From NCBI GenBank assembly GCA_030765785.1, contig JAVCCC010000044.1, positions 1,417 to 65,416 of the forward strand: a stretch of DNA of 64,000 bases, given 5' to 3'. The notes below the pieces were generated by a model. The model was not told where the DNA came from, ran no database searches, and worked only from the letters and a program-made list of their open reading frames with translations. The position numbers were made by a program, and so were the translations under genes. Source of the DNA: Candidatus Aceula lacicola. Lineage in GTDB: Bacteria > Omnitrophota > Gorgyraeia > Zapsychrales > Aceulaceae. Position 1 is the first letter of the stretch; every line of letters starts with the position of its first letter. Below are positions 13,127-63,977 of this stretch, one piece after another.

Positions 13127-13143
13127 GTTCTCTCCTAATATTT

Positions 13144-40543: not shown

Positions 40544-42556
40544 TTAAAACTCAAAACTAACACCTGAATAAAAGCTTCGCCCTTCAGCTGGGTAAAATCC
40601 TACGGCATTGCTTCCAAAAGAATAAACACCATACGCATTGTACATTCGACCTAATATATTTTTGACACTAAACCAAAATTTTATATTTTTATACTGATAA
40701 TCTAATTTAAAATTAAACGTAATATACGAATTCAATTTGGGCTGAACGTTAGCTTGATCACTAATGGCAAAACATTTGTCCACATAATTCATAGAAAATG
40801 TTGTGCTTAAATCATCAAGCGGATACACAGAAATGCCAGCTGAAACTTTATTTCGAGGCACAAATGGAACCTTATTCCCTGAATACGATCCTCCTTTTAA
40901 AAAGGCATCCTGATAAGTCCAGTTAACATATAGCTCTAAGAAATCTTCAAAAAACTTTGCCTTGCTGTTCACCTCAAAACCATAATGTCTTGTTTGAGGA
41001 TCGTAATTCGAATTTTTATATGTAATCGGATCATAATAAATTTCATTATCAATGTCCATCAAAAATATATTAGCATCTGCAAAAAACCCGGGCAAAGAGA
41101 CATCGCGAACACCAAGTTCATAGTTATGCGCCACTTGATGTTTTAAATTCGTATTGAGTCCCCCTCCGCTACCCCAAAAACCAGTATAAACGTTTTGATA
41201 ATATTCATCTGTTACTGGCAATCGGAATGACCTTGAATAATCAAAAAAAAGCTGAGAATCTTCATGATACTTATATCCTAATCCAAAACTAAAAGAACCA
41301 TCATTAATAGATTTTGAATCTTTGTTAACAGACACAGCCGTTTGATCAAAATCATACTCAGCCCATGTTCCTCGACCACCAAAACTAATTAAGAGCTTAT
41401 CTCTAATTTTAATATTTTCTAAAACATAAACGCCAATTGTTTGTTTTGTAATATCAACAAAATCTTGGGCTGAACGTTGATTTCCGCTTCGAACCTTATC
41501 TTTTGCACAAAAATAATCAAGCCCTATCGTTGTATCGCTAAAAATATCTTGAGTCATCATAGATTTTATCTGAAGCTTTGGGCGCAATTCAAAAGACTCA
41601 ATTTGATGAAGCGTTTCGTATCGTCCCCAGCTCGAAACAGACAATGACTTATTATCTCTTTTTCGATAAGAAAATGCCGAAGAAAATTCCATATCACTAT
41701 CTTTAATTGTAAAGCTTATTTTTGGCTCTACATTCACAAAATAATCAGATGTCCATCCTTTATCATCTGTATGCATTGTTCCTCTTCGCCCAACAGCATC
41801 AATATCTGTCGCAAAAAGAGCGCCAGGCATTCCATAGCGATCTCGATGATAACCCGTTGAGCATTCTAAAGAAAATCGATCGGTTAAGGAAAAAGATAAA
41901 TTAGAAAGATAATTATTAGACCAATAATCATTATTAGCTCGATAACCAGAAGATTGTTGATGAGAATAATCAAAGAAATAATCAATCTGCTTCGCTGTCC
42001 CGCTAGCGGATAAAAACGATTTCATATATTGATAACTGCCAATCTCTGTACCAATACGAAACGGCAATTCTGTCGCTTGATGCCCTTTTTTTGTAACAAT
42101 ATTAATAACACCCGCAGAAGCATTATCCCCATACAATACCGTCGAAGCTCCTTTTAAAATCTCAATATGATCAATAGAATCAAGACCAATCTGTCCCCAA
42201 TCCACCCCAGAAAGATCAACCTGATTCGTTCTTCGACCATCAATCAAAACAAGCACATTTGTTTTACTCGTTTCCCCAGAGCCACGAATGTCAATATTTA
42301 CTCCCTTAGGATTTCCTAAATAATCAGCAACAAAAACACCACTCTGCATTCCAATGATTTCCGGCACAGATGTAGCCGTTGATTGCTCGATATCTTCTCT
42401 CGTAATAATGGAAACGCCTTGCGTCACATCCGATATGTTTAAACTATTTCGACTCGCCAAAACATTAATCTTTCCTAAATCAAAATCATTGCTTCCCAGG
42501 CAAATATTTGGAATTAAAAAAAATGTTAATAATAAAAAACTTATTCTTTCTTTCAT
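40544..42556 (-). CDS. TonB-dependent outer-membrane receptor (BtuB-like, judging by the upstream cobalamin riboswitch)
   Basis: 670 aa. Signal peptide, plug domain (DVTQGVSIITREDIE), beta-barrel, C-terminal ...GVSFEF. Confidence 0.85.
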   Translation of the reverse strand: MKERISFLLLTFFLIPNICLGSNDFDLGKINVLASRNSLNISDVTQGVSIITREDIEQSTATSVPEIIGMQSGVFVADYLGNPKGVNIDIRGSGETSKTNVLVLIDGRRTNQVDLSGVDWGQIGLDSIDHIEILKGASTVLYGDNASAGVINIVTKKGHQATELPFRIGTEIGSYQYMKSFLSASGTAKQIDYFFDYSHQQSSGYRANNDYWSNNYLSNLSFSLTDRFSLECSTGYHRDRYGMPGALFATDIDAVGRRGTMHTDDKGWTSDYFVNVEPKISFTIKDSDMEFSSAFSYRKRDNKSLSVSSWGRYETLHQIESFELRPKLQIKSMMTQDIFSDTTIGLDYFCAKDKVRSGNQRSAQDFVDITKQTIGVYVLENIKIRDKLLISFGGRGTWAEYDFDQTAVSVNKDSKSINDGSFSFGLGYKYHEDSQLFFDYSRSFRLPVTDEYYQNVYTGFWGSGGGLNTNLKHQVAHNYELGVRDVSLPGFFADANIFLMDIDNEIYYDPITYKNSNYDPQTRHYGFEVNSKAKFFEDFLELYVNWTYQDAFLKGGSYSGNKVPFVPRNKVSAGISVYPLDDLSTTFSMNYVDKCFAISDQANVQPKLNSYITFNFKLDYQYKNIKFWFSVKNILGRMYNAYGVYSFGSNAVGFYPAEGRSFYSGVSFEF

Positions 42557-42834: not shown

Positions 42835-42990
42835 ATCCGTATGCCATTCTCTCGCGGCATATAAATATATAATTTTAGGCAGGCGTTCTGGCTCCTAGAA
42901 GACATTCTAGTTACAGTAGCGGGACTGCATCTGATTCTCACAGATTTTCCCTCTTAAGTTCTAAATTTCTTTAGAGACACCTAAAATAAA
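42835..42990 (-). ncRNA. Cobalamin (B12) riboswitch
   Basis: Minus strand reads GAGGGAAAAUCUGUGAGAAUCAGAUGCAGUCCCGCUACUGUAA ... AGGAGCCAGAACGCCUGCC. This matches the conserved GGGAA / GUGAnAAUC / GCnGnCCCGCnACnGUAA core and the B12 box. Confidence 0.85.
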
Positions 42991-42996
42991 AAAATT

Positions 42997-43494
42997 TTAA
43001 AGAACATACGCAAAACAAGTTTGTTTTATTCGTTTCACTAAAAACTCATAAACTCCAAAGAATACAATACTATATCCAACCGTGCTCAAAAGAGTCATTC
43101 TAAAAAATGGAATCGCAAGCGTAAAACAGGTCGCCAACCCTTTAAGTGTTAATGGATAATATCCTGAAAGCCAAACACCGAAGTTTGTAATCACAAAGAA
43201 AGCAAATGCTGATGCAGCGCTAGACACAACAACATTCTTTGCACTTTTCTTGTTTCGAAGCCAAAGTCCAATTGCGGATATCAGAAATAAACTACCCCAC
43301 GTAAAAAGCATCACAGAATGTATTCCTAGTATGATGTCTGTTGCCATCATTAAAAGAATAGGAAAAAACATTGCATATTTCTTGTCTAAATAAACACCGC
43401 CAAAAAGCACAAGTGCGAGGACTGGCGTAAAATTTGCCGGATGAACAACAAACCGCATCGTAACACCAAAAATTAATAATCCAAATGCTAACAT
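42997..43494 (-). CDS. Small polytopic membrane protein (possible ECF-type substrate-binding S-component; uncertain)
   Basis: 165 aa with 5-6 transmembrane helices. No diagnostic motif recognised. Confidence 0.45.
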   Translation of the reverse strand: MLAFGLLIFGVTMRFVVHPANFTPVLALVLFGGVYLDKKYAMFFPILLMMATDIILGIHSVMLFTWGSLFLISAIGLWLRNKKSAKNVVVSSAASAFAFFVITNFGVWLSGYYPLTLKGLATCFTLAIPFFRMTLLSTVGYSIVFFGVYEFLVKRIKQTCFAYVL

Positions 43495-43573: not shown

Positions 43574-44287
43574 CTATTGCATCGGAATAAGCCACTCAAT
43601 TTCCTTTAAGAGCTCTTCAATCTTAAAAGGTTTTGTCATATATTTTTGTGCACCCACAACTTTACCAATAAGACGATCTGCATCATCTTGAAGTGCCGTT
43701 AACATAATGATTGGAATGGATTCATCCTTGCTTTCCCGACGAATCTTTCGACAGACTTCAAATCCATTTAACTTTGGCATTTTTAAATCAAGCACAATTA
43801 AATCTGGTGCCTCTGTTAAATATTTTCGATATCCCTCTTCACCGTCAAATGCTACCACCGTCTCATATCCCTCCTTCTTAAAATAAGCTTGCAAAAGAGA
43901 AACCAGATCTTCCTCATCATCAATAATTAAAATTTTCTTTTTTCGATCGGACAAAACAATCATTTGTTCACAAAAGAATTTAAAAAACTTCTTTTCATCT
44001 TCACTGTCTGTTTTAGAAATTTTGACACCAATTCGATATAAATCAAAATCATCAAGTTTTAACGCCCAGATAGCCACCGCTTTCAGCAAAACCTCCTCAC
44101 CATCTTTTACTTGAACAAACAGATCGATTTCTTCTCCATTTTCTATCTTCAGCCCTGAACGAAAACAAATACCTTCTGCGCTTAAGTTAACGGTTGTTGT
44201 TTCAAAGAATTCCTCTGAAATACTAGAAATTTTAAACCGCCCAGAGAAATTAACATCTACTCTCTTATACGCTCTTTTTTCTGTCAT
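43574..44287 (-). CDS. PilZ-REC fusion response regulator (N-terminal PilZ domain, C-terminal receiver, no DNA-binding output)
   Basis: N-terminal KRAYKRVDVNFSGRF ... NLSAEGICF (PilZ RxxxR / DxSxxG-like). C-terminal KKILIIDDE...LIVLDLKMPKLNG receiver. Confidence 0.72.
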   Translation of the reverse strand: MTEKRAYKRVDVNFSGRFKISSISEEFFETTTVNLSAEGICFRSGLKIENGEEIDLFVQVKDGEEVLLKAVAIWALKLDDFDLYRIGVKISKTDSEDEKKFFKFFCEQMIVLSDRKKKILIIDDEEDLVSLLQAYFKKEGYETVVAFDGEEGYRKYLTEAPDLIVLDLKMPKLNGFEVCRKIRRESKDESIPIIMLTALQDDADRLIGKVVGAQKYMTKPFKIEELLKEIEWLIPMQ

Positions 44288-44289
44288 TT

Positions 44290-45207
44290 CTAAATATCTC
44301 CTTCTAACAAGGCATCAATTCGCTCCAAAAGCTGACTCTCACCATCATAAACAAGAATTGAAACTCCTTTTTTGTTTAATATTTCCTTTTTTCTTTTCTC
44401 AAGCCCAAGACCTCCGTAGACAATAACCGGGATATCCTGCGTACGCTCTGCGCCTCTTAAAAGATCAATAAGATTATCAGCGCGCATTTCACAAAGAATC
44501 TCTTTTATAAAAATAACATTTGGCAAATAGCTAATAGCCCCTTCCAAACACTTCGAAGGATTTCGAGCAATGTGAGCAAGAAGTCCATTCTTAAAAAAGA
44601 TTTCTTCAACCTTAGCGCAAAGTTGATCATCATCTTCAGCCAAAAGAATTTTATAAACTTTTTTTCTTTTTTTCACTGAAAGAGAAGCGCCTCCAATGAG
44701 GACACCTCCATCATCACCCTCTTCTTGCTGTCCAATAACGCCTTCAATCATAGATTCAGGCGTACTAACGCTATCCAAAGAATCTTGTTCCTTCAATTTC
44801 TCAATTTTCTCTTTTTGCGCACCATAATCTTTTAAATCTCGCCTTATGACATGTTCGATTTGCTGAACCACCTCGTTGATTTTAAACGGCTTCTCTAAAA
44901 AACCGTCAACCTTAACGACCTCAAAATAATCTCTCATACCAGCGCGTGCGGTTAAAATAATGAACGGAATATTTTTTCCAAAATCTGTTTCTTTTAATTC
45001 TTTTAAAAAATCATTCCCACTTTTCTTTGGCATAAGAACATCCGATAAAATAACATCCGGACGGACTTTCTCAGTCAACGCAAGGGCTTCCTCACCATCA
45101 GCTGCCTGGTAAACTTCATATCCTTGTTTCTCGAGTTCTTCAGCAATTAAAATCCGCAGATCTTTTTCATCCTCAGCTAAAAGAACTTTAATCTTTTTCA
45201 TACTCAT
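44290..45207 (-). CDS. Tandem-receiver protein (canonical REC1, degenerate REC2, no output domain)
   Basis: REC1 has VLLAEDEKDL...DVILSDVLMPKKSG. REC2 has ILLAEDDDQL... Confidence 0.72.
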   Translation of the reverse strand: MSMKKIKVLLAEDEKDLRILIAEELEKQGYEVYQAADGEEALALTEKVRPDVILSDVLMPKKSGNDFLKELKETDFGKNIPFIILTARAGMRDYFEVVKVDGFLEKPFKINEVVQQIEHVIRRDLKDYGAQKEKIEKLKEQDSLDSVSTPESMIEGVIGQQEEGDDGGVLIGGASLSVKKRKKVYKILLAEDDDQLCAKVEEIFFKNGLLAHIARNPSKCLEGAISYLPNVIFIKEILCEMRADNLIDLLRGAERTQDIPVIVYGGLGLEKRKKEILNKKGVSILVYDGESQLLERIDALLEGDI

Positions 45208-45209
45208 AT

Positions 45210-45680
45210 TTAGAAATCTCCTAAAATTTTCCGAACAAGCCCTAAAAGAGTTTCTCTTGAAAAAGGCTTTTCTAAATACATTATACTCTCAAAATTTTGC
45301 GCTTTCTTAAAAATTTCTCCAACCATACGTTTTGGCGTTGGCATCTTCTTTCGATCAATCCTATCCTTAGAAATCCCCTGCTTGTCCAACTCTTCTTTTT
45401 CTAAATAAGTAGCTTCCCCTAACCCGCTTGTAATAACAACTGGAATTTTATCCGTTTCGGAATTTTGCCTTAAAAGGCGGAGAACTTCATCACCCCTCAT
45501 TTTAGGCATAACGTAATCTAAAAAAATTAAATCCGGCTTTTTTTCTAAAACAATATAATACCCTTCTTCGCCATCTAATGCGGTATCAACTTCAAAGGGT
45601 CCCATGCCTTCTAAAAGTGATTTCATAAGAAAACAAAAATCTTTTTCGTCATCAATAATAACAATTTTCTTCTTTTCCAT
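45210..45680 (-). CDS. Single-domain response regulator (CheY-like)
   Basis: 156 aa with IVIIDDEKDF...LIFLDYVMPKMRG. Confidence 0.8.
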   Translation of the reverse strand: MEKKKIVIIDDEKDFCFLMKSLLEGMGPFEVDTALDGEEGYYIVLEKKPDLIFLDYVMPKMRGDEVLRLLRQNSETDKIPVVITSGLGEATYLEKEELDKQGISKDRIDRKKMPTPKRMVGEIFKKAQNFESIMYLEKPFSRETLLGLVRKILGDF

Positions 45681-45694
45681 AAAAATCCTTTCTT

Positions 45695-47407
45695 TTACTT
45701 AGCAGAAAAAGGAATACGAATAATAAATTTAGTGCCCTTGCCTTCTTCGCTTTCCACTTCGATCGTTGCATGATGTTTCTCTAAAATCATATAAACGGTG
45801 CTCAAACCCAATCCGGTTCCTCTTCCTTGTTCTTTTGTTGTATAAAAAGGTTCGAAAATTCTAGACATCACTTCTTTGGACATGCCTGGACCCGTATCTG
45901 ATACCTCTACAACAATCTGATCTTTTTGCGTTTTATCTTTCTCTAAACATGTCTTAACAAAAATGTCTCCTGCGCCCTCTATGGCGTCTCCAGCATTAAG
46001 CAAAAGATTAAAAAAAACCTGTTCCATTAGAATCTTATCCGCAAAAATTATTATTTCTTGGATAAAACACTCCCAATGAAAAATAATATTTTTAGATTTA
46101 AACACATTTTTCGCTAATAAAGTTGCGTTATTAAGAATTTCTTCAACAGAAACTTCTTCCATCTTAATGTCCGAAGAACGAGAAAAATTTAGAAGCTGCA
46201 CAACAACACTATTTGCACGCTCAGCCGCCTCTTTAATCATTTTTAAATGACTCCTTGTCTTCTCATCGGATTCAGCGATCTCATGATCTAGAGACCCTAC
46301 GCTAAGCAAAATAATAGCCAGAGGATTTTTAACTTCATGAGCCACTCCTGCAGACAACTGCCCAACGGCTGCCATTTTCTCTGATTGTAAAATCTGACCC
46401 TGCGCTTCCTTCAGTTGCTTTTGCTGCTTAAAAAACTTTGATATTAATCGCGCAATAACACCAAACTCTGCGCCACTTTTTTCTAAATCCTCAAGCTGAT
46501 CAACTTCTTCACAAGACAATGCTTTCGAAATTTTTCCTAAAGGCTTTGAAATCCAAACAAATCCAAACAAAAAGAAAAATATCAAAAAAGAAATTATAGA
46601 TACGATAAAATAATAAAAATTCTTTTGTTTTGATCTTAAAAGATAGTCTGCCAAAGGATACTGTGTTCGAAAAACAAGAGATCCAACAGCCTCTCCATCA
46701 AATCCATACAACTCTCTATAAATATAAAAAACATCTTCCAAGTCACGATGGAGCTCCTTAACGTCCTCATCTTTATACGATAACCGATCCATTAAAAAAA
46801 CATTTCCCTCCATTAGCTGAGAAAAATTTTCAACAAATTCATTATTTAAAGCACGCGCAACCAAAAAATATCCTCTCGGAGGAGTCTTTCGATCAACATC
46901 AGAGGTAGGATGAATTGTTGCCCCTCGAACCTCTAGAGGTCCCTCTTTAGACCATACAAAAAAATCGACAAAATGTTCACTATACAATTTTTCTTTAATT
47001 TTATTAAAAGAAATAGGAAATTCCTTTAAAAAACCCTCTTCCTCCTCCTGAATAGAATAAATAAGCCTTGAGTCTAAATCGTAAACCCAAGCAAACTGAA
47101 TATCATAAGTTTCCATAGCATTACCGATATTTTCTTCAGCCCATTCTTCAGCCTCTTCATCTGTTTGATTTTTTCGCTCTATAAGATCAACCATTTCATC
47201 CCAATAAGTATAATCAAAAGAAATTGCATCTAAAGAGTTTCCTTTAAGATTAAAAATCTCATTAAAAAAGTACGTTGTGTGTTCTTTGCGATCTTCCAGA
47301 ATAGTAAAAAACTCTTTTTGCTGAATTTGATCGATAAAAAATAATCCCACCGAAAAAAATACAATTGTTAACAATAAAAACAAAACAAGTTTTACTTGTA
47401 TCTTCAT
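45695..47407 (-). CDS. Sensor histidine kinase (two transmembrane segments, extracytoplasmic sensor domain, HisKA, HATPase)
   Basis: H-box HEVKNPLAII. N, G1 and G2 boxes (LLLNAGDA, DTGPGM, GTGLGLS). Confidence 0.88.
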   Translation of the reverse strand: MKIQVKLVLFLLLTIVFFSVGLFFIDQIQQKEFFTILEDRKEHTTYFFNEIFNLKGNSLDAISFDYTYWDEMVDLIERKNQTDEEAEEWAEENIGNAMETYDIQFAWVYDLDSRLIYSIQEEEEGFLKEFPISFNKIKEKLYSEHFVDFFVWSKEGPLEVRGATIHPTSDVDRKTPPRGYFLVARALNNEFVENFSQLMEGNVFLMDRLSYKDEDVKELHRDLEDVFYIYRELYGFDGEAVGSLVFRTQYPLADYLLRSKQKNFYYFIVSIISFLIFFFLFGFVWISKPLGKISKALSCEEVDQLEDLEKSGAEFGVIARLISKFFKQQKQLKEAQGQILQSEKMAAVGQLSAGVAHEVKNPLAIILLSVGSLDHEIAESDEKTRSHLKMIKEAAERANSVVVQLLNFSRSSDIKMEEVSVEEILNNATLLAKNVFKSKNIIFHWECFIQEIIIFADKILMEQVFFNLLLNAGDAIEGAGDIFVKTCLEKDKTQKDQIVVEVSDTGPGMSKEVMSRIFEPFYTTKEQGRGTGLGLSTVYMILEKHHATIEVESEEGKGTKFIIRIPFSAK

Positions 47408-47434
47408 ATTTTCTCCTATAACAAAAACATTTGG

Positions 47435-50400
47435 TTATCCAATGCTTGTAATTGGAAAAGTGACAAAAAACTTAGTCCCTTTACCAACTTCGCTCTCAAC
47501 GCTTATCTTGCCGCCATGCCTTTCGAGAATCATATACGCCGTGCTTAAGCCAAGTCCAGTTCCCTTGCCCGGTTCTTTTGTCGTATAAAATGGTTCAAAG
47601 ATTTTCTTTTGAACCTCTTCTGTCATTCCTTCTCCTGTATCTAAAACCTCAATAATCACTTCTTTTTTATTTTCCTCTGCAATTTCTGAAACATATGTCT
47701 TTACTCTAATCTCTCCATTGCTTTCAATAGCATCAGCAGCATTGCCGAATAGATTAAAAAAAACTTGTTCAAGCAAAATTTTGTCAGCCTGCACGACAAC
47801 GTCTTTGTTTATGAATTCCGTATTAAAAACAACATCTTTATTTTTTAGTGTTCTTCCGACGAGCGAAATAACATTATTTAATGCCTGATGTAAAGAAACG
47901 TCAGATAACTCAAGCTGAGAGTATCTTGAAAAGTTAAGAAGTTCCACAACAACCTTGTTTGCGCGCTCAGCCGCATCATTGATCATCTTCAGATGTTTTT
48001 TCCCTTCGCCACCTAAATCTCGTATCGTTGACTCTAGCGCGCCAACACTCAACAAAATAATGGCTAAAGGATTTTTCACTTCATGGGCAACACCCGCAGA
48101 AAGCTGACCAATAGCTGCCATCTTTTCTGACTGCAAAAGTTGCTGCTGCGCTTCTTTTAGCCGCTTATGTACCTTTTGAAGATCTAAAAACATCGATTCA
48201 AGCTTCTGCTCTGCATCTTTGCGCTCTGTGACATCTACTCCAACACATAAAATTTCCTTTATGCCAGAATCTACCACAATAGCTTTATTTGTCCAAGCAA
48301 CCCACATCCTGCTTCCGTCTTTACGCATATTTTGATTTTCATTACTCGCATATCTCTCTGAATAACTACAAATGTCATCAATCATGCGCCTTAAATCTTG
48401 GCCCGAATCATCCGTAGCCGGAACAATCGTTCCGATAACACTCTTTCCTAAAATTTCGTTTTCTTCGTACCCGAAAAATTTCTGAGCGAAATCATTTACA
48501 AAAGAAATTTTTCCTTCTTCATCCATGCGCAAAATAATACTATTAGCACTTTGAACAAGCTCTCGATATTTTTCCTCACTCTTTTTAAGTGCCTTCTCAT
48601 CCCCCTTACGTTTTGTCACATCACTCATTGTTCCAATCATCCGATTGGCAACACCCTGTTCGTCTACCAAAAAGACACCGTGCTCCTCAATATAAATATA
48701 CTTACCATCCTTTTTACACAATTGATATTCAATGTCATAAGGTTGCAAATCTTTCATTTTCTCGTTAAGCGCAGTTACAGTCTCAGCTCTATCGTCTGGG
48801 TGAATATATTGAACCCATTCCGCCAAACCAACATGTGCATACTCTTCTGGGGTGTATCCTGTTACTTCTTCAATAGCGCCTAACCAATAAATTTTTCCTG
48901 AAATAATATCATAGTCATAAACAAGCTGCCCAGTCTGTTCAGCCATAATACGATAACGATTTTCACTTGTGACAAGATCTTCCTCTGTCTGAATGCGTGC
49001 AATCACACCTCCTAAACGCGAGGCAATAATTTCAATAGCATTACGCGTTAAAAGAGAAGTCGCTTTGTGAAAATGAGAAGCAAGAAAAATAACGGATACC
49101 ACTTCTCCTCGATCTTCAACAGGAATAATTGCCATGGCGCGCAGACCTTCATTGTGACGAATTTCATCCATTTCAGATGCAATTTCTGAATGAAGCCCAT
49201 AAACCGCACGTCCTTCTAAAACAGACTGAACTTTGTTCATATTGATATTTAAATTCTCGCAAGTAGCTGCAAATTCCTCAGTAAACCCTTTTTGAATAAT
49301 CATTTGAGGCTCTTTTGTTTCCCTTCCAATCAAATAAATGCCACCGCAATCAAACTCTTCAATTTGCAACATAATATGAAGAAAGTCTTCAGCGGCATTC
49401 TTTAAGCTATGCCTCGAAGATAGCATAATCCCCAAATCTCTTTGAAGAGATATAACCTTCTCATTCTTCCTGCGATCTGTGACATCCTCCCCTGAACTTA
49501 AAATACCGATACACTTGCCGTCTTCTCCTTTAAGTACTGAATTGCTCCAAAGAATGACTTTTTCTTCTCCTCGCTTCGTTAAGATAGAATTTTCATAATA
49601 ACGTAAAAGTTCCGATTCTCCAGCTATCAAGCGATTATGAACTTCTTTAATTCGCCCTGCGCTCTTATGAGGCAAAAATAAATCAAACCAGTTCTTCCCA
49701 AATATTTCTTCTTTTTTATAGCCTAAAATTTCACATCCTCTCTCGTTGATCAAAACAATGTTTCCCTCTTTGTCTAGCGCGACCATCATCACGCCGGCAA
49801 CATCCAAATATTGTTTCGTTAAATCTTTTTCTCTTCGAAGGGCTTGCTCAACCTTCTCTCGATTCAAAACTTCACAATCAAGATCATTCTTGCTTGCCGT
49901 AATATCTTTAAGATTTATCGTCATCCGATTAAACGCTTCAGCCAATTCACCAAACTCATCCTGCACGTCAATCTGAATCACTGTATCCAAATTTCCTTTT
50001 CCTATTTCCGATGCCGCATTCTTAAGCTTAATCAGCTCTTTTGAAATCGAATTAGAAATCAAGAAACCGATAAGAACAGATAACGCCATAGAAATTAAAG
50101 AGACCAAAAGCATAATACTTTTTATCCGATTCACATCAGAAAAAACTTCATTACCTTGATAAGACGAAACTAAAAGCCATCCTAACCCCTTGTAATCACC
50201 AAACCCTTTCGATTGCGAGTAGGAAACAAGCTTTACTTCTCGATCTTTTTCTTTTACAACAAAATAACGAGGCTGGGCATGCAAAAATTGTTCAAAAAAC
50301 GAAAAAGAACCCTGAACAGAAGCTGTTTTTACGGGATGCATCTTAAAAGGGTAGATTAATTCTCCATTTCTTGTAAAAAGCTGAAAATCTGGAATCGCAA

Positions 50401-51127
50401 TTTTCGATCCCACAAGTTCCTGCGTTTGCTCAATTTCAGCCTGCTCAACAGAATCAATAATCTGAAAAACTCCCTCAAGATTAAAAACAACTTTCAAAAC
50501 ACCTAAGAACTTTCCATTGGCATCATTAATTCTCAAACAAAAATTAATAGCAGTCATGTTAGAGCTTTTATCAAAATTAACATCCTCCACAAAAATCCCT
50601 TTTTCTTTCGCCTGAATCCACCAATCTTCATCAGCCTGATAATAATCAGTGGTCTTACCCGTTTGCGCAACATTAATACCATATTGATTTGTAACAAAAG
50701 CCTCTCCAAAAACAGGATACCCATATTCACCCGAATAAAACGCCAATCGATTCTTAAGAATCTGTGCTAAAGGATTTTCCGAGAGATCTCGGACAAATGT
50801 TGGGACTTCGCCTTGTTCATTTTTTTTCCAAAATTCTTCGTGCTGCTCAATATATAAAAAGAGATTATCAATTCGAGAAAATTCTTGATTAGAGTCTTGA
50901 AGGCTTGTTTGAAGCTCTGGATTAAAAAGAATTTCACGAAATACTTGGATCTTATTAAAAATATCTCTGTCAATTTTGCCCAATGCTGTTCTGGTCAAAA
51001 CCACAGAGTTTCTTCCAATGTTTTTCTTAAGCGCCTTATAGCTTATGCTTGTTGCCACATACCCAGCAACCGCCATGAGAAAAACAACAACTAAAAAACC
51101 TAAGATTAACTTAATGCCTATTTTCAT
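47435..51127 (-). CDS. Large multi-PAS sensor histidine kinase (transmembrane segments, periplasmic Cache-like domain, HAMP, three or more PAS/GAF, HisKA, HATPase; no receiver)
   Basis: 1230 aa. The HEVKNPLAII H-box is nearly identical to that of the neighbouring kinase. ATPase motifs DTGEGM and GTGLGLS. Confidence 0.88.
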   Translation of the reverse strand: MKIGIKLILGFLVVVFLMAVAGYVATSISYKALKKNIGRNSVVLTRTALGKIDRDIFNKIQVFREILFNPELQTSLQDSNQEFSRIDNLFLYIEQHEEFWKKNEQGEVPTFVRDLSENPLAQILKNRLAFYSGEYGYPVFGEAFVTNQYGINVAQTGKTTDYYQADEDWWIQAKEKGIFVEDVNFDKSSNMTAINFCLRINDANGKFLGVLKVVFNLEGVFQIIDSVEQAEIEQTQELVGSKIAIPDFQLFTRNGELIYPFKMHPVKTASVQGSFSFFEQFLHAQPRYFVVKEKDREVKLVSYSQSKGFGDYKGLGWLLVSSYQGNEVFSDVNRIKSIMLLVSLISMALSVLIGFLISNSISKELIKLKNAASEIGKGNLDTVIQIDVQDEFGELAEAFNRMTINLKDITASKNDLDCEVLNREKVEQALRREKDLTKQYLDVAGVMMVALDKEGNIVLINERGCEILGYKKEEIFGKNWFDLFLPHKSAGRIKEVHNRLIAGESELLRYYENSILTKRGEEKVILWSNSVLKGEDGKCIGILSSGEDVTDRRKNEKVISLQRDLGIMLSSRHSLKNAAEDFLHIMLQIEEFDCGGIYLIGRETKEPQMIIQKGFTEEFAATCENLNINMNKVQSVLEGRAVYGLHSEIASEMDEIRHNEGLRAMAIIPVEDRGEVVSVIFLASHFHKATSLLTRNAIEIIASRLGGVIARIQTEEDLVTSENRYRIMAEQTGQLVYDYDIISGKIYWLGAIEEVTGYTPEEYAHVGLAEWVQYIHPDDRAETVTALNEKMKDLQPYDIEYQLCKKDGKYIYIEEHGVFLVDEQGVANRMIGTMSDVTKRKGDEKALKKSEEKYRELVQSANSIILRMDEEGKISFVNDFAQKFFGYEENEILGKSVIGTIVPATDDSGQDLRRMIDDICSYSERYASNENQNMRKDGSRMWVAWTNKAIVVDSGIKEILCVGVDVTERKDAEQKLESMFLDLQKVHKRLKEAQQQLLQSEKMAAIGQLSAGVAHEVKNPLAIILLSVGALESTIRDLGGEGKKHLKMINDAAERANKVVVELLNFSRYSQLELSDVSLHQALNNVISLVGRTLKNKDVVFNTEFINKDVVVQADKILLEQVFFNLFGNAADAIESNGEIRVKTYVSEIAEENKKEVIIEVLDTGEGMTEEVQKKIFEPFYTTKEPGKGTGLGLSTAYMILERHGGKISVESEVGKGTKFFVTFPITSIG

Positions 51128-51129: not shown

Positions 51130-52176
51130 TTATGCGCTAAAATACGCTCCCAATAAAAAAACACCAACAGCCATTAAAAAAGAAAATAAACTTACCGCAA
51201 ATGCTTTCATTCCTTCTTTCGAGAATACATTTCTTAAGCTTGCATTTAACCCAATCGCCGCCATAGCAGTACTCCAAAATAACGTCAAAACAATTTTTAA
51301 TACTGGACGCAAAAACCCAACAGCTGGGAAAAAAGTAAAAATCAATCCACCCAATAAAAATCCCCATAGATACCAGGGAATATAAAACTTTCCTTTAGAA
51401 AAGCTCGCAAAAAGAGGAATTAAAAATAACAATCCTGCATACCGAATTGCCTTAACAGAAATCGCCAAAGACTTTATATGACTTGGAAAATCTCGAACAG
51501 CGACCTTTACAAATCCAGTAAACTGCAAAACGCTCCCAGAAAGAACACCATAGTTTACATCTGACATTTTGAGCCAAGCAGAAACTAGCGGCAAAACAAT
51601 AAATAATCCGATCATCCCTGATATAAAAATTGGGACCAGACTGACAGAAACTTCATCAGAATCAGCATCGATAGCCTTAGAGGCAATCACAATCGCAGAA
51701 GCACCGCAAATGGTGGAGCCAGTTGTCAAAAGATATCCCACTTTTTCCTTAAGCTTCAAAAGTGAAGATAAAAAAAGCGCCGTAATAATATAAATAATAA
51801 AGACGAACAAAATTAGAAAAATAAAATCAAACTCAATGGATGAAAATACTTTAAAATTTAAATTAACGCACCCATACAAAACGACTCCAATTGGAATCAA
51901 TAAGGCAGGGGCAGAATTGATGCTAGAAGAATATTGATTGGGAATACGAAAAAAAGAATTGATAAAAATACCTAACAACATAGCTATAAAAAGAGGATCA
52001 AGTAAAGGATTTGCGGTAATCTTTTGAAGTGCAAAAGCCACAAGTCCAATAATAAAAGCCAGAACAATACCGCATTTATTTTCCAGCGTTTTCTTTCGAT
52101 TTTCCACAGCATACCTCTTCTCTTTAAGTTCGACTTTAATATGCGAACTCATTATACCGCAAAAGCTTATAAACAA
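51130..52176 (-). CDS. Polytopic membrane protein (YeiH/UPF0324-like putative transporter; uncertain)
   Basis: 348 aa with about 10 transmembrane helices. Confidence 0.45.
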   Translation of the reverse strand: MFISFCGIMSSHIKVELKEKRYAVENRKKTLENKCGIVLAFIIGLVAFALQKITANPLLDPLFIAMLLGIFINSFFRIPNQYSSSINSAPALLIPIGVVLYGCVNLNFKVFSSIEFDFIFLILFVFIIYIITALFLSSLLKLKEKVGYLLTTGSTICGASAIVIASKAIDADSDEVSVSLVPIFISGMIGLFIVLPLVSAWLKMSDVNYGVLSGSVLQFTGFVKVAVRDFPSHIKSLAISVKAIRYAGLLFLIPLFASFSKGKFYIPWYLWGFLLGGLIFTFFPAVGFLRPVLKIVLTLFWSTAMAAIGLNASLRNVFSKEGMKAFAVSLFSFLMAVGVFLLGAYFSA

Positions 52177-54704: not shown

Positions 54705-55397
54705 TTAAGGTTTATGAACTAAGATTTGTTTTGCTTCGCCACGACCAATGGCAATGCGTGCATCTTTAAGCTCTAAAACAATTGGACCAAAATGAGAATT
54801 TTTAACAATTTTAAAATCTCCGCTAGGGACAAGGCCCAAGTCCGTTAGACGCTTACGAAGGCTTGCGCCTCCATCTATTCTTGCTAACCGAACAATTTGG
54901 TTTTCGGAAACAAGCGTAACAGGAATAACTTCGTTGGATGTTTGTTGGCATTGCTCGCAAATGCCATAAACTTCTAGCTTATGGAATAGCGGTCGACACC
55001 CTTTTTGAAAAATCAAAGAATTCTGAAGCGATTCAAGCTGATCACTTGTAAACTCCATAACTTTCTTACATTTTACACAAACGAAATGATCATGATGATT
55101 CTCAGGATGCAAATGTTCATAACGCTTAAAATCTTCTCCTTCGAATTGAAGCTCAGAAGCAAACCCAATCTCAGAAAACAGCTTTAATGACTTTTCAGTG
55201 TCTGCCTTACTTACATTAATTCCTTTGCCTTGAAGAATTTGGTAAAAATCATCGACTGATATATGTTTTTCACAGGTAGAAAATTCTTGTACAATGCCAG
55301 GGCAAATGCTTTTATCAATACGCCCTTTTTTGTGCAAAAGATCACAAAGATGATCCTGAACCTCTTTTGAAATAATATAAAAATCTCCGTATAGCAT
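54705..55397 (-). CDS. Fur-like metal-sensor domain fused to a C-terminal FeoA domain
   Basis: HHDHFVCVKCKKVMEF ... CEQC (Fur structural-site signature), followed by an FeoA SH3-like domain (IVRLARIDGGASLRKRLTDLGLVPSG). Confidence 0.65.
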   Translation of the reverse strand: MLYGDFYIISKEVQDHLCDLLHKKGRIDKSICPGIVQEFSTCEKHISVDDFYQILQGKGINVSKADTEKSLKLFSEIGFASELQFEGEDFKRYEHLHPENHHDHFVCVKCKKVMEFTSDQLESLQNSLIFQKGCRPLFHKLEVYGICEQCQQTSNEVIPVTLVSENQIVRLARIDGGASLRKRLTDLGLVPSGDFKIVKNSHFGPIVLELKDARIAIGRGEAKQILVHKP

Positions 55398-61897: not shown

Positions 61898-63403
61898 TTA
61901 AAATTCCTGCCAAAGGACAACATTAAGAGTCACCCCCGAACTTCCAGCAATCATTCCAGGAGGAAGATTCGCAGATAAATCTGGGACTTGATAAATCGAA
62001 GGAACGTTAGTTCCCATATTAAAATAATTTGAAACAATCGAACCAATAACATCTGTCTGCTTAGTAATCGTTATTGTATCTTCAGCATAAAACGCACCCA
62101 TAGCTGCTGTTTGCGCTTCATAAAAACCAATTGTATTAGGCGTCATAATTCCAAAACAATTTATCGGAAAAGAAACGTTTCCTGACGTAACAAGACTAGC
62201 ATTTACTTCCGCCGTACCCGTCACAAGAACTGTTCCTATCCCACTATATGTTATTGTTGTATTTCCACCAACTTTATTAAAATTTAAAGCATTATCTCCA
62301 TCAATATAAATTTTTCCGGCAATCGTCAAACTCCCACTTCCATCCATGCTAATACTATTCGTACCATCCGTATAACTAAAAACACTATTCGGCTTAATAT
62401 CATTAAGCTCATTTGTTAAAACAAGGGCCTCTGATTGAAATTTTTGTTGAACAGTTAAACTTGGGTTACTCGGATCAGGGTCAGACAAACTTGGGAATGT
62501 CATAGAATCTCCTAAATCATAAGCATTTGCTGTTCCATTATCAGAATAAACGTTTGACGCCCCCTGGTTTCCTCCCCATCCATCTGTCACGTAAACTGCA
62601 TCAACAGTTTCTTTAATCGAATTGCCAGAAACATCAGTGTTTCCTACGCCCGCACTTCCGCTTAAAGCAACAACACCTGTCTTAACGCGCAATTCCGCAT
62701 TTAAAGTTGAGACCGTTTCTCCATTAAAAACTGTTGTCGGAAGCGCTGGAATTTTTGCCTGCAAAGCTGCGCTGAGACCTGTGTAATTATTTTGAACAAA
62801 CTGTGCTGTTCCGCCTAAATTAGCAGCTAAATCTGTCGGGTTAAGACCGCTTCCTAAAACAACAACAGACCCTGCAATATCAACCGTCCCATTAATCATT
62901 GCCCCTGATTGCCCTTCTCCAGCAAAAATAACGTAATCCCAAGGAGAAGAGCTTGACATAGAAACATATATCTGAACAGTTATTACTATTCCATTAAGGA
63001 CTGCAGTTGAGCGAATCCATATTTCATCAGGGCTGCTTGTATTCTTCAGCAAGACTGAATATTGCCCTCCATTTAAAGTCGTGCCGCTATACGGAACCGA
63101 ATAAAATACGCCCGTATTCGGCCCTATATTAAAAGAACCAATATTTCCATCGCTCCAGCTCCCGGTTGAAGCATAATCTTGCTTTAAATCATATATCGCT
63201 CTTTGCAGTCCAGACTCTGCGATATAAAATGTCATAGTCTCAAGCCTTTGTCTTTCTGAAATGCGCATTTCACTTGCAGCGTACATCACAAAAGCAGCAC
63301 TCAACCCAATCAAAACAACAATCACAAGGTAAGAAATTAAAAGCAAACTTCCTCGTCGATTATTTAGTCGTTTCAATATTGGATATCTTTTTTTACCCTT
63401 CAT
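61898..63403 (-). CDS. Large pilus-associated protein (PilX/minor-pilin-like; uncertain)
   Basis: 501 aa. N-terminal hydrophobic anchor and a Ser/Thr/Gly/Asn-rich beta-type sequence. Follows a prepilin gene. Confidence 0.45.
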   Translation of the reverse strand: MKGKKRYPILKRLNNRRGSLLLISYLVIVVLIGLSAAFVMYAASEMRISERQRLETMTFYIAESGLQRAIYDLKQDYASTGSWSDGNIGSFNIGPNTGVFYSVPYSGTTLNGGQYSVLLKNTSSPDEIWIRSTAVLNGIVITVQIYVSMSSSSPWDYVIFAGEGQSGAMINGTVDIAGSVVVLGSGLNPTDLAANLGGTAQFVQNNYTGLSAALQAKIPALPTTVFNGETVSTLNAELRVKTGVVALSGSAGVGNTDVSGNSIKETVDAVYVTDGWGGNQGASNVYSDNGTANAYDLGDSMTFPSLSDPDPSNPSLTVQQKFQSEALVLTNELNDIKPNSVFSYTDGTNSISMDGSGSLTIAGKIYIDGDNALNFNKVGGNTTITYSGIGTVLVTGTAEVNASLVTSGNVSFPINCFGIMTPNTIGFYEAQTAAMGAFYAEDTITITKQTDVIGSIVSNYFNMGTNVPSIYQVPDLSANLPPGMIAGSSGVTLNVVLWQEF

Positions 63404-63404
63404 A

Positions 63405-63977
63405 TCAATTCCTCAATTCCAATTCAAAATTTAACTGATACGTAAGTGAATTACCTTTTAATGTTATATCTTCCCCAACAAGAGCAACCTCCATAATATT
63501 TGGCGTTGCTAATTGCCGCCTGAATTGTACTGATTGAATATCGTGAGCTACAATATCTGTTGCTGGTCCCATGCTATTAATCCGATGAAGCTCTGTTAAA
63601 CCCGTTCCTCCTAAAATATATTGAAACGTATTCGCTTCCCAAAGAATAGACCCATTTAAAATTGTGTTAGGAATATGAAACGTAATCGACGTATACCAAA
63701 CATCATCTGCAGGCACATCTACTATTGCAGCCGATCCCGTTTCAAGTAAATCTTTCTTAATCTGCTCCATAGATTTACGCAATTCTCTCTGAAGACCAAT
63801 CTGAGCCCTGTTAACTTCCCATGTGCGTTGCCCTGCATTCATCGACACATATAAAGCACCCACTAAAAAAGAAAGAATTAAAACAGTCACCATGACTTCG
63901 AGTAGCGTAAAGCCTCTGGATAATTCTTTTTTTATTTTAGCTTCCTTCATTCTCATTTTTCCCCTACTTCTGCGCAA
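63405..63977 (-). CDS. Type IV prepilin-like protein (minor pilin / pseudopilin). The real start is probably the internal Met at about 63950.
   Basis: Prepilin peptidase site G|FTLLEVMV followed by a hydrophobic helix. Confidence 0.7.
   Translation of the reverse strand: MRRSRGKMRMKEAKIKKELSRGFTLLEVMVTVLILSFLVGALYVSMNAGQRTWEVNRAQIGLQRELRKSMEQIKKDLLETGSAAIVDVPADDVWYTSITFHIPNTILNGSILWEANTFQYILGGTGLTELHRINSMGPATDIVAHDIQSVQFRRQLATPNIMEVALVGEDITLKGNSLTYQLNFELELRN

Follow-up and report, generated by a model that had tools for sequence, protein, structure and literature searches.

A candidate operon for a branched two-component circuit with a PilZ-receiver protein in Candidatus Aceula lacicola

Introduction

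How might a bacterial signalling cluster deliver its output when it contains two histidine kinases and three response regulators, but nothing recognizable for binding DNA? The question is raised by a 64 kb stretch of DNA (the window) from Candidatus Aceula lacicola, an uncultured lake bacterium of the Omnitrophota. Five tightly packed genes on the minus strand, at 43574-51127, encode two HisKA kinases (HK1 and HK2) and three receiver-only regulators (RR1 to RR3), and all five open reading frames lie exactly where the initial annotation had drawn them. A Pfam search of the five proteins found no HTH, enzymatic or Hpt domain, which upholds the earlier view that none of the three regulators has an HTH or enzymatic output and that the cluster is not a classical transcriptional two-component system. 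The interpretation that we favor on balance is a single operon encoding a branched two-component circuit without transcriptional output, made of two nested modules and having RR3 as its end point.

The genes considered are the following:

51130..52176, minus strand: YeiH-type (PF03601) membrane transporter gene (Pfam, 155 bits)
47435..51127, minus strand: HK1, 1230-aa sensor histidine kinase (Pfam, TM prediction)
45695..47407, minus strand: HK2, 570-aa sensor kinase (Pfam CHASE4, HisKA, HATPase_c)
45210..45680, minus strand: RR1, 156-aa stand-alone receiver (Pfam REC)
44290..45207, minus strand: RR2, 305-aa receiver plus pseudo-receiver (Pfam, family alignment, AF2)
43574..44287, minus strand: RR3, 237-aa PilZ-REC protein (Pfam PilZ and REC)
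42997..43494, minus strand: DUF6580 membrane protein (Pfam, 148 bits), 79 nt after RR3

Organization of the operon and its relatives

From HK1 through HK2, RR1 and RR2 to RR3, the intergenic gaps measure 27, 14, 2 and 2 nt. The last two junctions each consist of a stop codon, 2 nt and an ATG, with AGGAGA located within the end of the upstream gene, and GC and GC3 are uniform throughout the cluster. Promoter and terminator scans of the cluster performed no better than on shuffled sequence, and the operon boundaries were therefore drawn from spacing alone.

Nine related Omnitrophota loci (L numbers below) were compared with the window. Each of the five syntenic loci has HK1. In L087 and L089, where RR3 is 77% and 57% identical, respectively, HK1 is followed directly by the PilZ-REC gene and nothing else, HK2 being absent. 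L088 has all five genes, RR2 is missing from L002, and the non-syntenic L091 carries YeiH-HK-RR1-RR2 without RR3. In the sister species Ca. A. meridiana (L093) the modules are physically apart, as HKa-RR1-RR2 and HKb-REC, and the positional orthologue of the PilZ-REC protein lacks PilZ entirely. Across these relatives the HK2-RR1-RR2 cassette is found whole, in part, not at all or at another place. The cluster is composed of two nested modules, a conserved core of HK1 and the PilZ-REC protein and a dispensable HK2-RR1-RR2 cassette, a division that had been missed in the initial annotation.

The flanking genes were followed through the same loci. The stop codon of the YeiH-type gene lies 2 nt from the HK1 start, and such a gene is found 0-12 nt upstream of a kinase in L087, L088 and L091 as well; this adjacency is absent in L002 and L089. 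The transporter gene is probably the first gene of the operon. The DUF6580 gene follows RR3, or its PilZ-less orthologue, in all six syntenic loci, and the PilZ-REC loci L004 and L006, which are non-syntenic, lack it; it is a conserved downstream neighbor and at most a candidate member of the system.

The two kinases

The domains of the kinases, all on the minus strand, were mapped as follows:

50129-51070: HK1 periplasmic Cache-like region, aa 20-333, between two TM helices
49907-50062: HK1 HAMP (Pfam)
48224-49804: HK1 PAS / GAF-like / PAS / PAS (Pfam)
47447-48109: HK1 HisKA+HATPase transmitter (Pfam)
48083-48085: HK1 phospho-accepting His1015 (position mapped on the sequence)
46808-47251: HK2 periplasmic CHASE4 (Pfam, 66 bits)
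45707-46366: HK2 HisKA+HATPase transmitter (Pfam)
46337-46339: HK2 His357 (position mapped on the sequence)

In HK1 the Cache-like region is enclosed by predicted TM helices at residues 1-19 and 334-352 and is followed by HAMP, the PAS / GAF-like / PAS / PAS array and the transmitter. HAMP, at least three PAS domains, HisKA and HATPase_c all scored far above threshold, in agreement with the original description of a 1230-aa kinase with Cache-like, HAMP and multiple PAS domains, the dCache_1 match (27 bits, cut-off 45) and the GAF match being sub-threshold. HK2, rightly described as a 570-aa membrane sensor kinase, has TM helices predicted at 1-19 and 262-280 on either side of its sensor, which can now be named as CHASE4, and then its transmitter. 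In the circuit that we favor, HK1 would sense through its periplasmic Cache-like domain and its cytoplasmic PAS/GAF array, autophosphorylate on His1015 and pass the phosphoryl group to Asp167 of RR3, and the genes placed between those of HK1 and RR3 would provide an accessory module of the CHASE4 kinase HK2 with RR1 and RR2.

The likeness of the two transmitters bears on whether these modules communicate. A 20-residue H-box stretch, SAGVAHEVKNPLAIILLSVG, is identical in HK1 and HK2, the rest of DHp helix 1 is nearly so, and the transmitter cores share 59% identity over 244 aa. The DNA of the H-box region is 71% identical, with synonymous differences in 19 of 40 codons, which argues that the match is held by selection and is not due to recent duplication. 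The near-identical H-boxes noted at the outset are confirmed, and the result fits a shared docking specificity. As the two kinases have a common docking helix in Aceula lacicola, HK2 most likely feeds the receivers of HK1, giving the circuit two inputs. The same DHp helix also occurs in HK1 orthologues whose only neighboring receiver is the PilZ-REC protein; since the entire kinase family has this helix, it argues only weakly for cross-talk in particular.

The cluster could instead consist of two insulated systems lying side by side, with HK1 acting on RR3 only and HK2 on RR1 and RR2 only, and with no cross-talk or integration. This arrangement, which we consider rather unlikely, would explain why the modules are found apart (HK1 and RR3 in L087 and L089, HK-RR1-RR2 in L091, two blocks in L093), and in clade B (L088 and L002) the DHp helix of HK2 has diverged from that of HK1, as expected of insulated paralogues, and points to insulated modules in that clade. 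It sits poorly with the window itself, where the docking helices are almost identical under selection and the cassette lies between HK1 and its partner, translationally coupled to RR3, and with the interleaved gene order, which is kept in both clades.

The PilZ-receiver protein

The two halves of RR3, both on the minus strand, are:

43946-44287: PilZ domain, aa 1-114, with R5xxxR9 and N34-L-S-A-E-G39
43589-43939: receiver, aa 117-233, with D123/D124, D167 (43787-43789), T197 and K219

Pfam detected both domains of the fusion that had been claimed, PilZ with 40.4 bits (cut-off 22.5). A loss of the conserved PilZ residues, raised at the outset as a possible objection, was not seen: the RxxxR and [D/N]hSxxG motifs are intact, and R5, R9, G39 and D167 are invariant in a 32-member family alignment. 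In the AF2 model (mean pLDDT 83), residues 10-90 form a beta-barrel and residues 96-114 a helix, and the receiver takes the (beta-alpha)5 fold. The six-stranded barrel, the C-terminal helix, both motifs and a conserved hydrophobic residue (in N-L-S-A-E-G) are shared with the stand-alone canonical PilZ receptors reviewed by Galperin & Chou (10.1101/814665), from which RR3 differs in having its PilZ fused to a receiver. Judged by these residues, the PilZ domain is canonical and predicted to bind c-di-GMP. The closest sequence relatives of this half are mostly stand-alone PilZ proteins of 105-140 aa, one of them on the same contig (L090), and among the 150 best cluster representatives no more than about 7 reach the fused PilZ-REC length.

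The receiver half is closest to the OmpR/PhoB type (the receivers of PhoP, VicR, RpaA and YycF). In such receivers, phosphorylation typically drives dimerization via the alpha4-beta5-alpha5 face, and RR3 may do likewise. It would integrate two signals, phosphorylation of the receiver and binding of c-di-GMP by PilZ, and would act on its target by protein-protein contact, not DNA binding.

PilZ-REC proteins have been on record since 2006; the type is not new and is familiar from Myxococcus. PixA (MXAN_1087) of Myxococcus xanthus is a PilZ-receiver response regulator able to bind c-di-GMP in vitro through an R9xxxR motif; its mutant phenotypes indicate regulation by phosphorylation, and c-di-GMP binding is dispensable for its motility phenotype (PMC8316039). 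By its description, PixA resembles RR3 in the N-terminal PilZ and C-terminal receiver, the similar size, the RxxxR at the extreme N-terminus, the intact second motif, the conserved phospho-acceptor Asp and the lack of a DNA-binding output. However, PixA is an orphan without a neighboring kinase, whereas RR3 shares its operon with two kinases and two other receivers, and the two proteins come from different phyla; the role of PixA in polarity and reversals is not transferable to Aceula lacicola.

The source of the ligand is a separate matter. In line with the initial annotation, Pfam (on the window's ORFs of at least 100 aa) and a motif scan found no GGDEF, EAL or HD-GYP domain, and none is present in the truncated PFOR gene with which the window starts. 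L090, from the same contig, likewise yielded no diguanylate cyclase, and none of the 120 GGDEF matches listed bears the name Aceula. GGDEF/EAL genes are common in the Omnitrophota, and related members have GGDEF genes. We therefore only infer c-di-GMP production in Aceula lacicola from the two canonical PilZ proteins on one contig and the GGDEF genes of relatives. The sister species' orthologue without PilZ shows that this domain is not needed for the receiver to work, and the c-di-GMP input may therefore be minor.

The receivers without output domains

RR1 had been described as a CheY-like single receiver. It is a stand-alone REC with D10/D11, D55 (45516-45518), S85 and K138 intact, to which can be added a conserved insertion of about 35 aa before beta5 (about 45291-45395); the Pfam match covers profile positions 1-86 of 111 only. 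When RR1 is aligned with CheY and with its orthologues from L088 and L002, catalytic residues and insertion both prove to be conserved.

RR2 is built of three parts, on the minus strand:

44845-45189: N-terminal predicted functional receiver, aa 7-121, acceptor D56 at 45040-45042
44668-44826: disordered linker, aa 128-180 (AF2 pLDDT below 50)
44296-44652: pseudo-receiver, aa 186-304, Lys235 in the acceptor position

The reading of RR2 as a tandem receiver stands for the N-terminal half, which is one good REC with its catalytic residues intact, as they are in RR1 and RR3. The C-terminal half matched REC weakly (E=0.045) and is a pseudo-receiver: in a 23-member alignment its acceptor position holds Lys or Arg in 22 proteins, Pro in one and never Asp. 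This domain is conserved, with family-specific invariant residues, and in the AF2 model both domains are (beta-alpha)5 folds with pLDDT above 90. In the PDB, the ten best matches are all PleD and span both domains.

Caulobacter PleD (REC - REC' adaptor - GGDEF) shares with RR2 a stem of a phosphorylatable receiver followed by a receiver-like domain without the acceptor Asp, and the NCBIfam PleD model aligns over RR2 residues 7-277. The cluster also recalls the DivJ/PleC-DivK/PleD network in its two HisKA kinases, single-domain receiver, tandem-receiver protein and link to c-di-GMP. Both model scores stay below their cut-offs, at 70 bits for RR2 with the PleD model (cut-off 474) and 71 bits for RR1 with a DivK-like model (cut-off 160). 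Unlike PleD, RR2 has no GGDEF and joins its two domains by a disordered linker of ~50 aa, and the c-di-GMP link is here a PilZ receptor on a separate protein instead of a cyclase. DrdR of Xanthomonas campestris, an orphan regulator with tandem receivers of which one is a pseudo-receiver, binds PilB and PilT (PMC13507683). Like RR2, it has two receiver folds, one of them functional, and no output domain; it acts by protein-protein contact, as RR2 may by analogy. The order of the domains is reversed, the pseudo-receiver being N-terminal in DrdR, and no PilB/PilT-like partner is encoded near RR2.

In the branched circuit, RR1 and RR2 would either draw phosphoryl groups in competition with RR3 or serve as adaptors. 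Their intact phospho-acceptor pockets without an output domain, their dispensability in relatives and their sharing of kinases with the same docking helix would also suit a simpler role as phosphate sinks, in which one or both only drain phosphoryl groups from the kinases and thereby sharpen or shorten RR3 signalling. Sinorhizobium CheY1 is such a sink for CheY2. We regard a pure sink as doubtful here, because the insertion of RR1, the conserved pseudo-receiver of RR2 with its invariant residues, and the genes beside RR2-family members elsewhere (a conserved membrane protein 'X' after, or a stand-alone PilZ before) suggest specific partners. Several receivers in a row without output domains could likewise recall a multi-step His-Asp-His-Asp phosphorelay ending on RR3, as had been proposed. 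This is highly improbable: Hpt is absent from the five proteins and the rest of the window, neither kinase carries a receiver of its own, as a hybrid would, and the linker of RR2 is predicted to be disordered and not a four-helix bundle.

The pilin-like genes

The initial annotation had further linked the cluster to type IV pilin genes at 61.9-64 kb. Of these, 63405-63977 is a prepilin-type gene with an N-methylation motif, the only one among the pilin-like ORFs, and the label fails for 61898-63403, which has a sub-threshold PilX_N match only. That gene, and the effects on pilus-dependent motility of the closest studied counterparts of RR3 and RR2, namely PixA and DrdR, are what speak for regulation of type IV pili or of a chemotaxis-like motility, whether with the pilin-like genes or with an external Che locus. 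We judge it unlikely. The pilin-like genes lie about 11-12 kb upstream of HK1, outside the operon and separated from it by about a dozen unrelated genes; PilB/C/T/M-Q, CheA, CheW and MCP genes are absent from the window; the kinases are of the HisKA type, not CheA; and other family members adjoin glycosyltransferase or LPS genes instead.

That the regulators are canonical CheY proteins of an outside chemotaxis locus was also considered and found unlikely, the receivers being translationally coupled to HisKA kinases and that of RR3 being OmpR/PhoB-like. The genes between HK1 and the pilin-like genes include a transporter, Feo, Fur-FeoA, DtxR, PhoH, IlvD and others.

Organization of the signalling cluster

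The five genes of the minus-strand cluster at 43574-51127 constitute a PilZ-receiver two-component system with co-encoded kinases and an accessory receiver/pseudo-receiver branch, a conclusion that leaves the initial annotation, which had proposed a phosphorelay or phosphate-sink circuit acting on a PilZ effector, partly right. The open reading frames lie exactly where they had been placed, and their products, two sensor kinases (HK1, HK2) and three regulators (RR1-RR3), have the following Pfam content:

Genes of the cluster, with domain assignments
HK1, 47435-51127, minus strand, 1230 aa: weak dCache_1, HAMP, PAS, weak GAF, two PAS, HisKA, HATPase_c
HK2, 45695-47407, minus strand, 570 aa: CHASE4, HisKA, HATPase_c
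RR1, 45210-45680, minus strand, 156 aa: receiver
RR2, 44290-45207, minus strand, 305 aa: one strong receiver; C-terminal half with a receiver match at E=0.045
RR3, 43574-44287, minus strand, 237 aa: PilZ and receiver

The window has a GC content of 36%, and all its real genes are on the minus strand. Within the cluster the genes are tightly spaced: two nucleotides separate a YeiH-type gene from HK1, followed by gaps of 27, 14, 2 and 2 nt down to RR3, and 79 nt lie between RR3 and a DUF6580 gene. The RR1-RR2 and RR2-RR3 junctions consist of a stop codon, 2 nt and an ATG, with an AGGAGA site located within the end of the upstream gene, which indicates translational coupling. Promoter and terminator scans inside the cluster gave nothing better than shuffled sequence. 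The possibility that HK2-RR1-RR2 had been acquired recently by horizontal transfer was rejected in view of the uniform GC and GC3 of the cluster and its neighbours.

Pfam and NCBIfam detect no HTH and no enzymatic output in the five proteins, as had been noticed for the three regulators from the sequence, and all five score below the cut-offs of the NCBIfam models. In particular, RR1, RR2 and RR3 have no Trans_reg_C, GerE, HTH_8, Sigma54_activat or LytTR match, and the cluster is not a classical transcriptional two-component system. The phosphorelay was not supported, in that the Hpt domain (PF01627) is absent from the five proteins, neither HK1 nor HK2 carries a REC domain, and neither an Hpt domain nor a hybrid kinase was found among the other window ORFs scanned with Pfam. 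Likewise, no CheA, CheW or MCP gene occurs within the 64-kb window and the receivers are co-operonic with HisKA kinases, a setting that is not that of chemotaxis CheY proteins.

Essentially all other genes of the window were searched with Pfam, and no GGDEF, EAL, HD-GYP, Che, Hpt or pilus-machinery domain was seen; the reported lack of GGDEF and EAL genes holds in the Pfam scans, in a motif scan and in the edge-truncated gene at 1-3113. The latter (minus strand) had been taken for 3 kb free of ORFs, an idea that was rejected when it proved to be a single reading frame, open for at least 1037 codons and running off the window edge, encoding pyruvate:ferredoxin oxidoreductase (PFOR). A link to type IV pilin genes had also been suggested and is not supported: HK1 is ~11 kb downstream of these genes, pilus assembly genes are missing from the window, and in the pilin-like region (61898-63977, minus strand) the prepilin N-methylation motif occurs in one ORF (63405-63977, minus strand; N_methyl, E=3.7e-7), its 501-aa neighbour having only a sub-threshold PilX_N match (E=0.0025). 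The stretch that separates the pilin-like genes from the cluster encodes a chromate transporter, desulfoferrodoxin, lycopene cyclase, IlvD, PhoH, DtxR, Fur-FeoA, FeoB, FeoC and the YeiH-type transporter.

A conserved core pair and a separable cassette

The neighbourhoods of PilZ-receiver orthologues and RR2-family members were compared in nine further loci.

Gene content of the compared loci, with identity of the PilZ-receiver protein to RR3
Window, 100%: YeiH-HK1-HK2-RR1-RR2-RR3-DUF6580
L088, 57%: the YeiH-to-RR3 gene set as in the window
L002, 57%: HK1-HK2-RR1-RR3; no RR2, no YeiH
L087, 77%: YeiH-HK1-RR3
L089, 57%: HK1-RR3
L093 (Ca. A. meridiana), receiver only: HKa-RR1-RR2, solute-binding protein, HKb, 126-aa receiver, DUF6580
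L091, no RR3: YeiH-HK-RR1-RR2
L004, 47%: RR3, receiver, one dCache/PAS kinase, receiver, RR2 orthologue
P0028 locus, 46%: RR3, receiver, MASE1/PAS kinase, receiver
L006, 41%: only RR3, with glycosyltransferase and sugar-modification genes starting 11 nt downstream

The presence and absence of genes across these loci identify HK1 and the PilZ-receiver protein as a conserved core pair, and HK2-RR1-RR2 as a separable accessory cassette, which in the window genome is inserted between HK1 and RR3. Loci with and without the cassette occur in both clades, {window, L087} and {L088, L002, L089}; in L087 and L089 the PilZ-receiver gene directly follows HK1 with no signalling gene between, and in Ca. A. 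meridiana the modules form separate blocks. In this last genome (GCA_030765185.1), the 126-aa receiver at 12910-13290 shares 68-71% identity with the receiver half of RR3 and lacks a PilZ domain, for which the 14 nt after the preceding kinase gene leave no room; it is the PilZ-less positional orthologue of RR3. Since it falls above the PilZ-fused L004 branch in the receiver-half tree, where its exact position is not well resolved, loss of PilZ in the Ca. A. meridiana lineage would be the most parsimonious course.

The genes flanking the cluster are also partly conserved. A YeiH-type (PF03601) gene lies 0-12 nt upstream of the kinase gene in the window (51130-52176, minus strand), L087 (5305-6276), L088 (2113-3096) and L091 (4470-5438), the adjacency being kept in L091 despite otherwise different neighbours, and transporter and kinase could function or sense together. 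The DUF6580 membrane protein gene (window 42997-43494, minus strand) is found 57-81 nt beyond RR3 or its PilZ-less counterpart in the window, L002, L087, L088, L089 and L093, and is absent from the non-syntenic PilZ-receiver loci; its conservation may reflect synteny alone, or a link to B12 uptake. A cobalamin riboswitch aptamer (42861-42999, minus strand; 62.5 bits, gathering score 31.5) begins at the DUF6580 stop codon and is followed by a 13-bp hairpin with a T-run (42804-42776, minus strand), probably its terminator platform, both located upstream of a TonB-dependent receptor gene (40544-42556). Transcription of the signalling operon may continue into the riboswitch, as no terminator is predicted in the interval from RR3.

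The PilZ-receiver protein RR3

The PilZ domain of RR3 (PF07238) reaches 40.4 bits (cut-off 22.5), with residues 3-101 covering profile positions 1-96 of 102. Degeneracy of this domain would have undone the proposed c-di-GMP link; on alignment, both the N-terminal RxxxR motif (R5-A-Y-K-R9) and the [D/N]hSxxG motif (N34-L-S-A-E-G39) are intact. R5, R9, G39 and the phosphoacceptor D167 are invariant in 32/32 family members; in the second motif, D or N is found in 30/32, and the serine is replaced by glycine or alanine in many distant members. The receiver conserves D167, T197 and K219, and is most similar to OmpR/PhoB-family receivers (PhoP, VicR, YycF, RpaA). In the AF2 model (mean pLDDT 83), strands over residues 10-90 and a helix at 96-114 (block pLDDT 79-89) precede a complete receiver, so that the PilZ half is modelled as a canonical barrel with its C-terminal helix. 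By motifs and predicted fold the domain is of the canonical c-di-GMP-binding type, binding itself being a prediction. A PDB fold search with the model aligned the receiver half alone and lent the PilZ fold no independent confirmation, and a PDB sequence search with the PilZ half returned a single non-significant match (YpfA, E=0.41).

Full-length relatives of RR3 number ~46 in a word-indexed search (39-100% identity), and all named ones are from Omnitrophota. When the PilZ half was compared by phmmer with 1.84 billion cluster representatives, 161 matches at E<=1e-3 were obtained; most are stand-alone PilZ proteins (105-140 aa), and the fused length is seen in ~7 of the top 150. The PilZ-receiver proteins form a small family, probably created when a stand-alone PilZ became fused to a stand-alone receiver. 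A reference-genome scan with the PilZ-receiver alignment yielded 80 generic receiver loci, none with the PilZ half; its patterns were drawn from the receiver half, which makes the scan uninformative on taxonomic spread.

The kinases and their shared H-box

HK1 has predicted transmembrane helices at 1-19 and 334-352 with a Cache-like region between them, whose dCache_1 match (PF02743) is, at 27 bits, below the gathering score of 45; dCache_1 is recorded for the HK1 orthologue of L088, and the analogous L004 kinase, which has neither receiver nor Hpt domain, scores 74 bits. In HK2 a CHASE4 domain (PF05228) spans residues 53-200, scores 66.1 bits (cut-off 26.2) and lies between predicted transmembrane helices at 1-19 and 262-280.

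The near-identity of the two H-boxes had been read as a sign of duplication or of shared partners, and the 20-residue stretch is indeed identical in HK1 and HK2, whose transmitter cores are 59% identical over 244 residues. In the DHp helix-1 stretch the protein sequences are identical, the DNA is only 71% identical and 19/40 codons differ synonymously, which argues that the identity is held by selection and does not stem from recent duplication or conversion. Gene conversion or domain replacement of HK2 by HK1 in the window lineage had been considered, as neighbour joining places the window HK2 core among HK1 cores, apart from its HK2 counterparts in L088 and L002 (bootstrap 149/200 versus 41/200); its identity is 55-59% with the former and 45-48% with the latter. 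This explanation was largely dropped: the synonymous differences are saturated, and the helix, SAGVAHE[VI]KNPL..ILLS, is present in all family kinases adjoining RR1-RR2 or RR3, those of L091 and L093 included. In the wider alignment it diverges only in the HK2s of L088 and L002 (clade B), and divergence of these HK2s would be the simpler reading.

DHp helix 1 is an established determinant of partner specificity. Because the window HK2 shares this helix with HK1 orthologues that have the PilZ-receiver protein as their sole neighbouring receiver, HK2 is predicted to be able to dock RR3.

The accessory receivers

RR1 retains D10/D11, D55, S85 and K138, and carries an insertion of ~35 residues before beta5 that is kept in the alignment of its orthologues. 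RR2 had been described as a tandem-receiver protein, which applies to its N-terminal half, an intact receiver (E12, D13, D56, T86, K106), and not to the second domain, where Lys235 occupies the acceptor position and neither the conserved Thr nor the conserved Lys is retained. Across the 23 aligned family members, the acceptor position is Lys or Arg in 22 and Pro in the remaining one, never Asp. AlphaFold models RR2 (mean pLDDT 82.7) as two (beta-alpha)5 domains, both above 90, with a disordered stretch of ~50 residues between them; together with the alignment, the five strand-helix units of residues 186-304 (pLDDT >90) mark this domain as a pseudo-receiver. The best ten PDB matches are all PleD, with both receiver-like domains aligned (E ~1e-16, versus 1e-10 for single receivers). 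From Lys235, the two-domain model and the PleD matches, RR2 is a receiver plus pseudo-receiver; it does not belong to the PleD family proper (NF007135), having only REC-REC' and scoring 70 bits against a cut-off of 474. So far this branch is known only from Omnitrophota. The homology search with RR2 gave a best match of 65% and did not return the window's own RR2, probably owing to a word-index gap, as a gene of the same length is present on a 430-kb JGI contig (sample 3300031697) that carries a PilZ-receiver protein identical to RR3, annotated in metagenome-assembled genomes of Ca. Aceula lacicola.

Directly downstream of RR2-family genes, polytopic membrane proteins of 244-252 aa ("X"), mutually 31-44% identical and matching no Pfam family, are encoded in L090 (10977-11711), L091 (8919-9656) and L092 (8963-9721); the window has no homologue. 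These ~245-aa proteins had been entertained as divergent PilZ-receiver proteins, which was rejected given their polytopic membrane nature and lack of similarity to RR3.

c-di-GMP and the cell envelope

PilZ genes are rarely linked to GGDEF genes, and a cyclase-free 64-kb window is therefore uninformative on c-di-GMP. The JGI contig that includes the window sequence also encodes, at L090, a canonical stand-alone PilZ protein of 118 aa with the motifs KREFIR and NISEQG. The L004 system has a PAS-GAF-GGDEF gene at a distance of 10 kb, and this cyclase family is common in Omnitrophica-labelled genomes, including that of Ca. Zapsychrus exili from the same lake study. Among the 120 GGDEF matches listed, none was labelled Aceula and several were labelled Omnitrophica or Ca. 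Zapsychrus exili. On the strength of the second PilZ on the contig and the GGDEF genes of relatives, c-di-GMP synthesis in Ca. Aceula lacicola is likely. The organism, an anaerobic fermenter, was described from Ace Lake, Antarctica, with no mention of signalling, pili or chemotaxis in that description (PMC8542988).

At L090 (9454-11711), ~120 kb from the window, the stand-alone PilZ gene, an RR2 paralogue (38% identical) and the gene of a 244-aa membrane protein occur together; LPS-core genes (LpxK, lipid A acyltransferase, GT4 and GT9 transferases) immediately precede the group, and two serpin genes follow it. As to the process targeted by RR3, genomic context gives weak hints of the cell envelope, derived from the L006 orthologue directly before glycosyltransferase genes and from the L090 RR2 paralogue and PilZ following the LPS-core genes.

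Proposed mechanism and relation to known systems

HK1 would sense an extracytoplasmic ligand via its Cache-like domain and cytoplasmic cues via its PAS/GAF array, and HK2 would sense via CHASE4. Both would autophosphorylate on the H-box histidine (H1015 and H357, respectively) and then transfer the phosphoryl group to a receiver aspartate, the minimal loci pointing to HK1 and D167 of RR3 as the conserved pair. RR1 and RR2 would receive phosphoryl groups from HK2, probably also from HK1, and may act as competitors or adaptors. OmpR/PhoB-type receivers change their oligomeric state via the alpha4-beta5-alpha5 face, and phospho-RR3 might do likewise, its PilZ domain binding c-di-GMP and the combined state presumably controlling a partner by direct contact.

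It is conceivable, if rather improbable, that RR2-type proteins are dedicated PilZ partners in Omnitrophota, forming with PilZ or PilZ-receiver proteins a coincidence detector of kinase signal and c-di-GMP for a membrane or envelope process, e.g., one involving protein X or polysaccharide/LPS synthesis. This idea draws on the RR2-family gene being directly before the PilZ-receiver gene (window, L088) or sharing an operon with it (L004), on the RR2 paralogue directly after the stand-alone PilZ in L090, on RR2-family genes preceding X (L090, L091, L092), and on the glycosyltransferase genes that flank L006 and L090.

Proteins that join PilZ to a receiver already appear in the first survey of PilZ domains, from 2006 (cited in 10.1101/814665). 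To our knowledge, PixA of Myxococcus xanthus is the only one to have been studied, and we know of no kinase for it. RR3 resembles it in architecture, with an N-terminal PilZ and a C-terminal receiver whose acceptor Asp is intact. No kinase gene adjoins that of PixA, whose regulation by phosphorylation is suggested by genetics (PMC8316039). RR2 is like the PleD stem without the cyclase and, more loosely, like DrdR of Xanthomonas, a protein that binds PilB and PilT and has its pseudo-receiver at the N-terminus (PMC13507683). With two kinases, a single-domain receiver, a tandem-receiver protein and a c-di-GMP link, the cluster recalls the DivJ/PleC-DivK/PleD system of Caulobacter; as the NCBIfam cut-offs are not reached, this is an analogy and not membership.

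The Omnitrophota family thus provides natural operon-encoded kinase partners for PilZ-receiver proteins, and the two relatives with the minimal pair of one kinase and one PilZ-receiver protein offer a clean in vitro system for the question of their kinase. The natural variants (the core by itself, the core with the cassette, a cassette lacking RR2, a PilZ-less orthologue) form a series in which a signalling operon gains and loses branches. A receiver/pseudo-receiver family, limited to Omnitrophota so far, and a linked family of uncharacterised membrane proteins are defined here. Current understanding is not overturned: the modular series, the kinase-linked PilZ-receiver protein and the PilZ-less orthologue are useful and not surprising, and with an uncultured organism their impact depends on heterologous biochemistry.

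Further observations

Fur and FeoA domains are joined in one 230-aa protein in the window (54705-55397, minus strand) and in L093 (542-1234), the protein being conserved in this sister species. Its gene immediately precedes feoB and comes after that of a DtxR-type repressor. A giant protein of 1898 aa with no Pfam match at E<=0.001 is encoded at 13659-19355 (minus strand) of the window. In L089, a gene at 14476-15360, near hydrogenase/NuoF-like genes, encodes a protein of 294 aa in which a receiver is fused to a thioredoxin-like 2Fe-2S (NuoE-type) domain, an unusual output for a response regulator.
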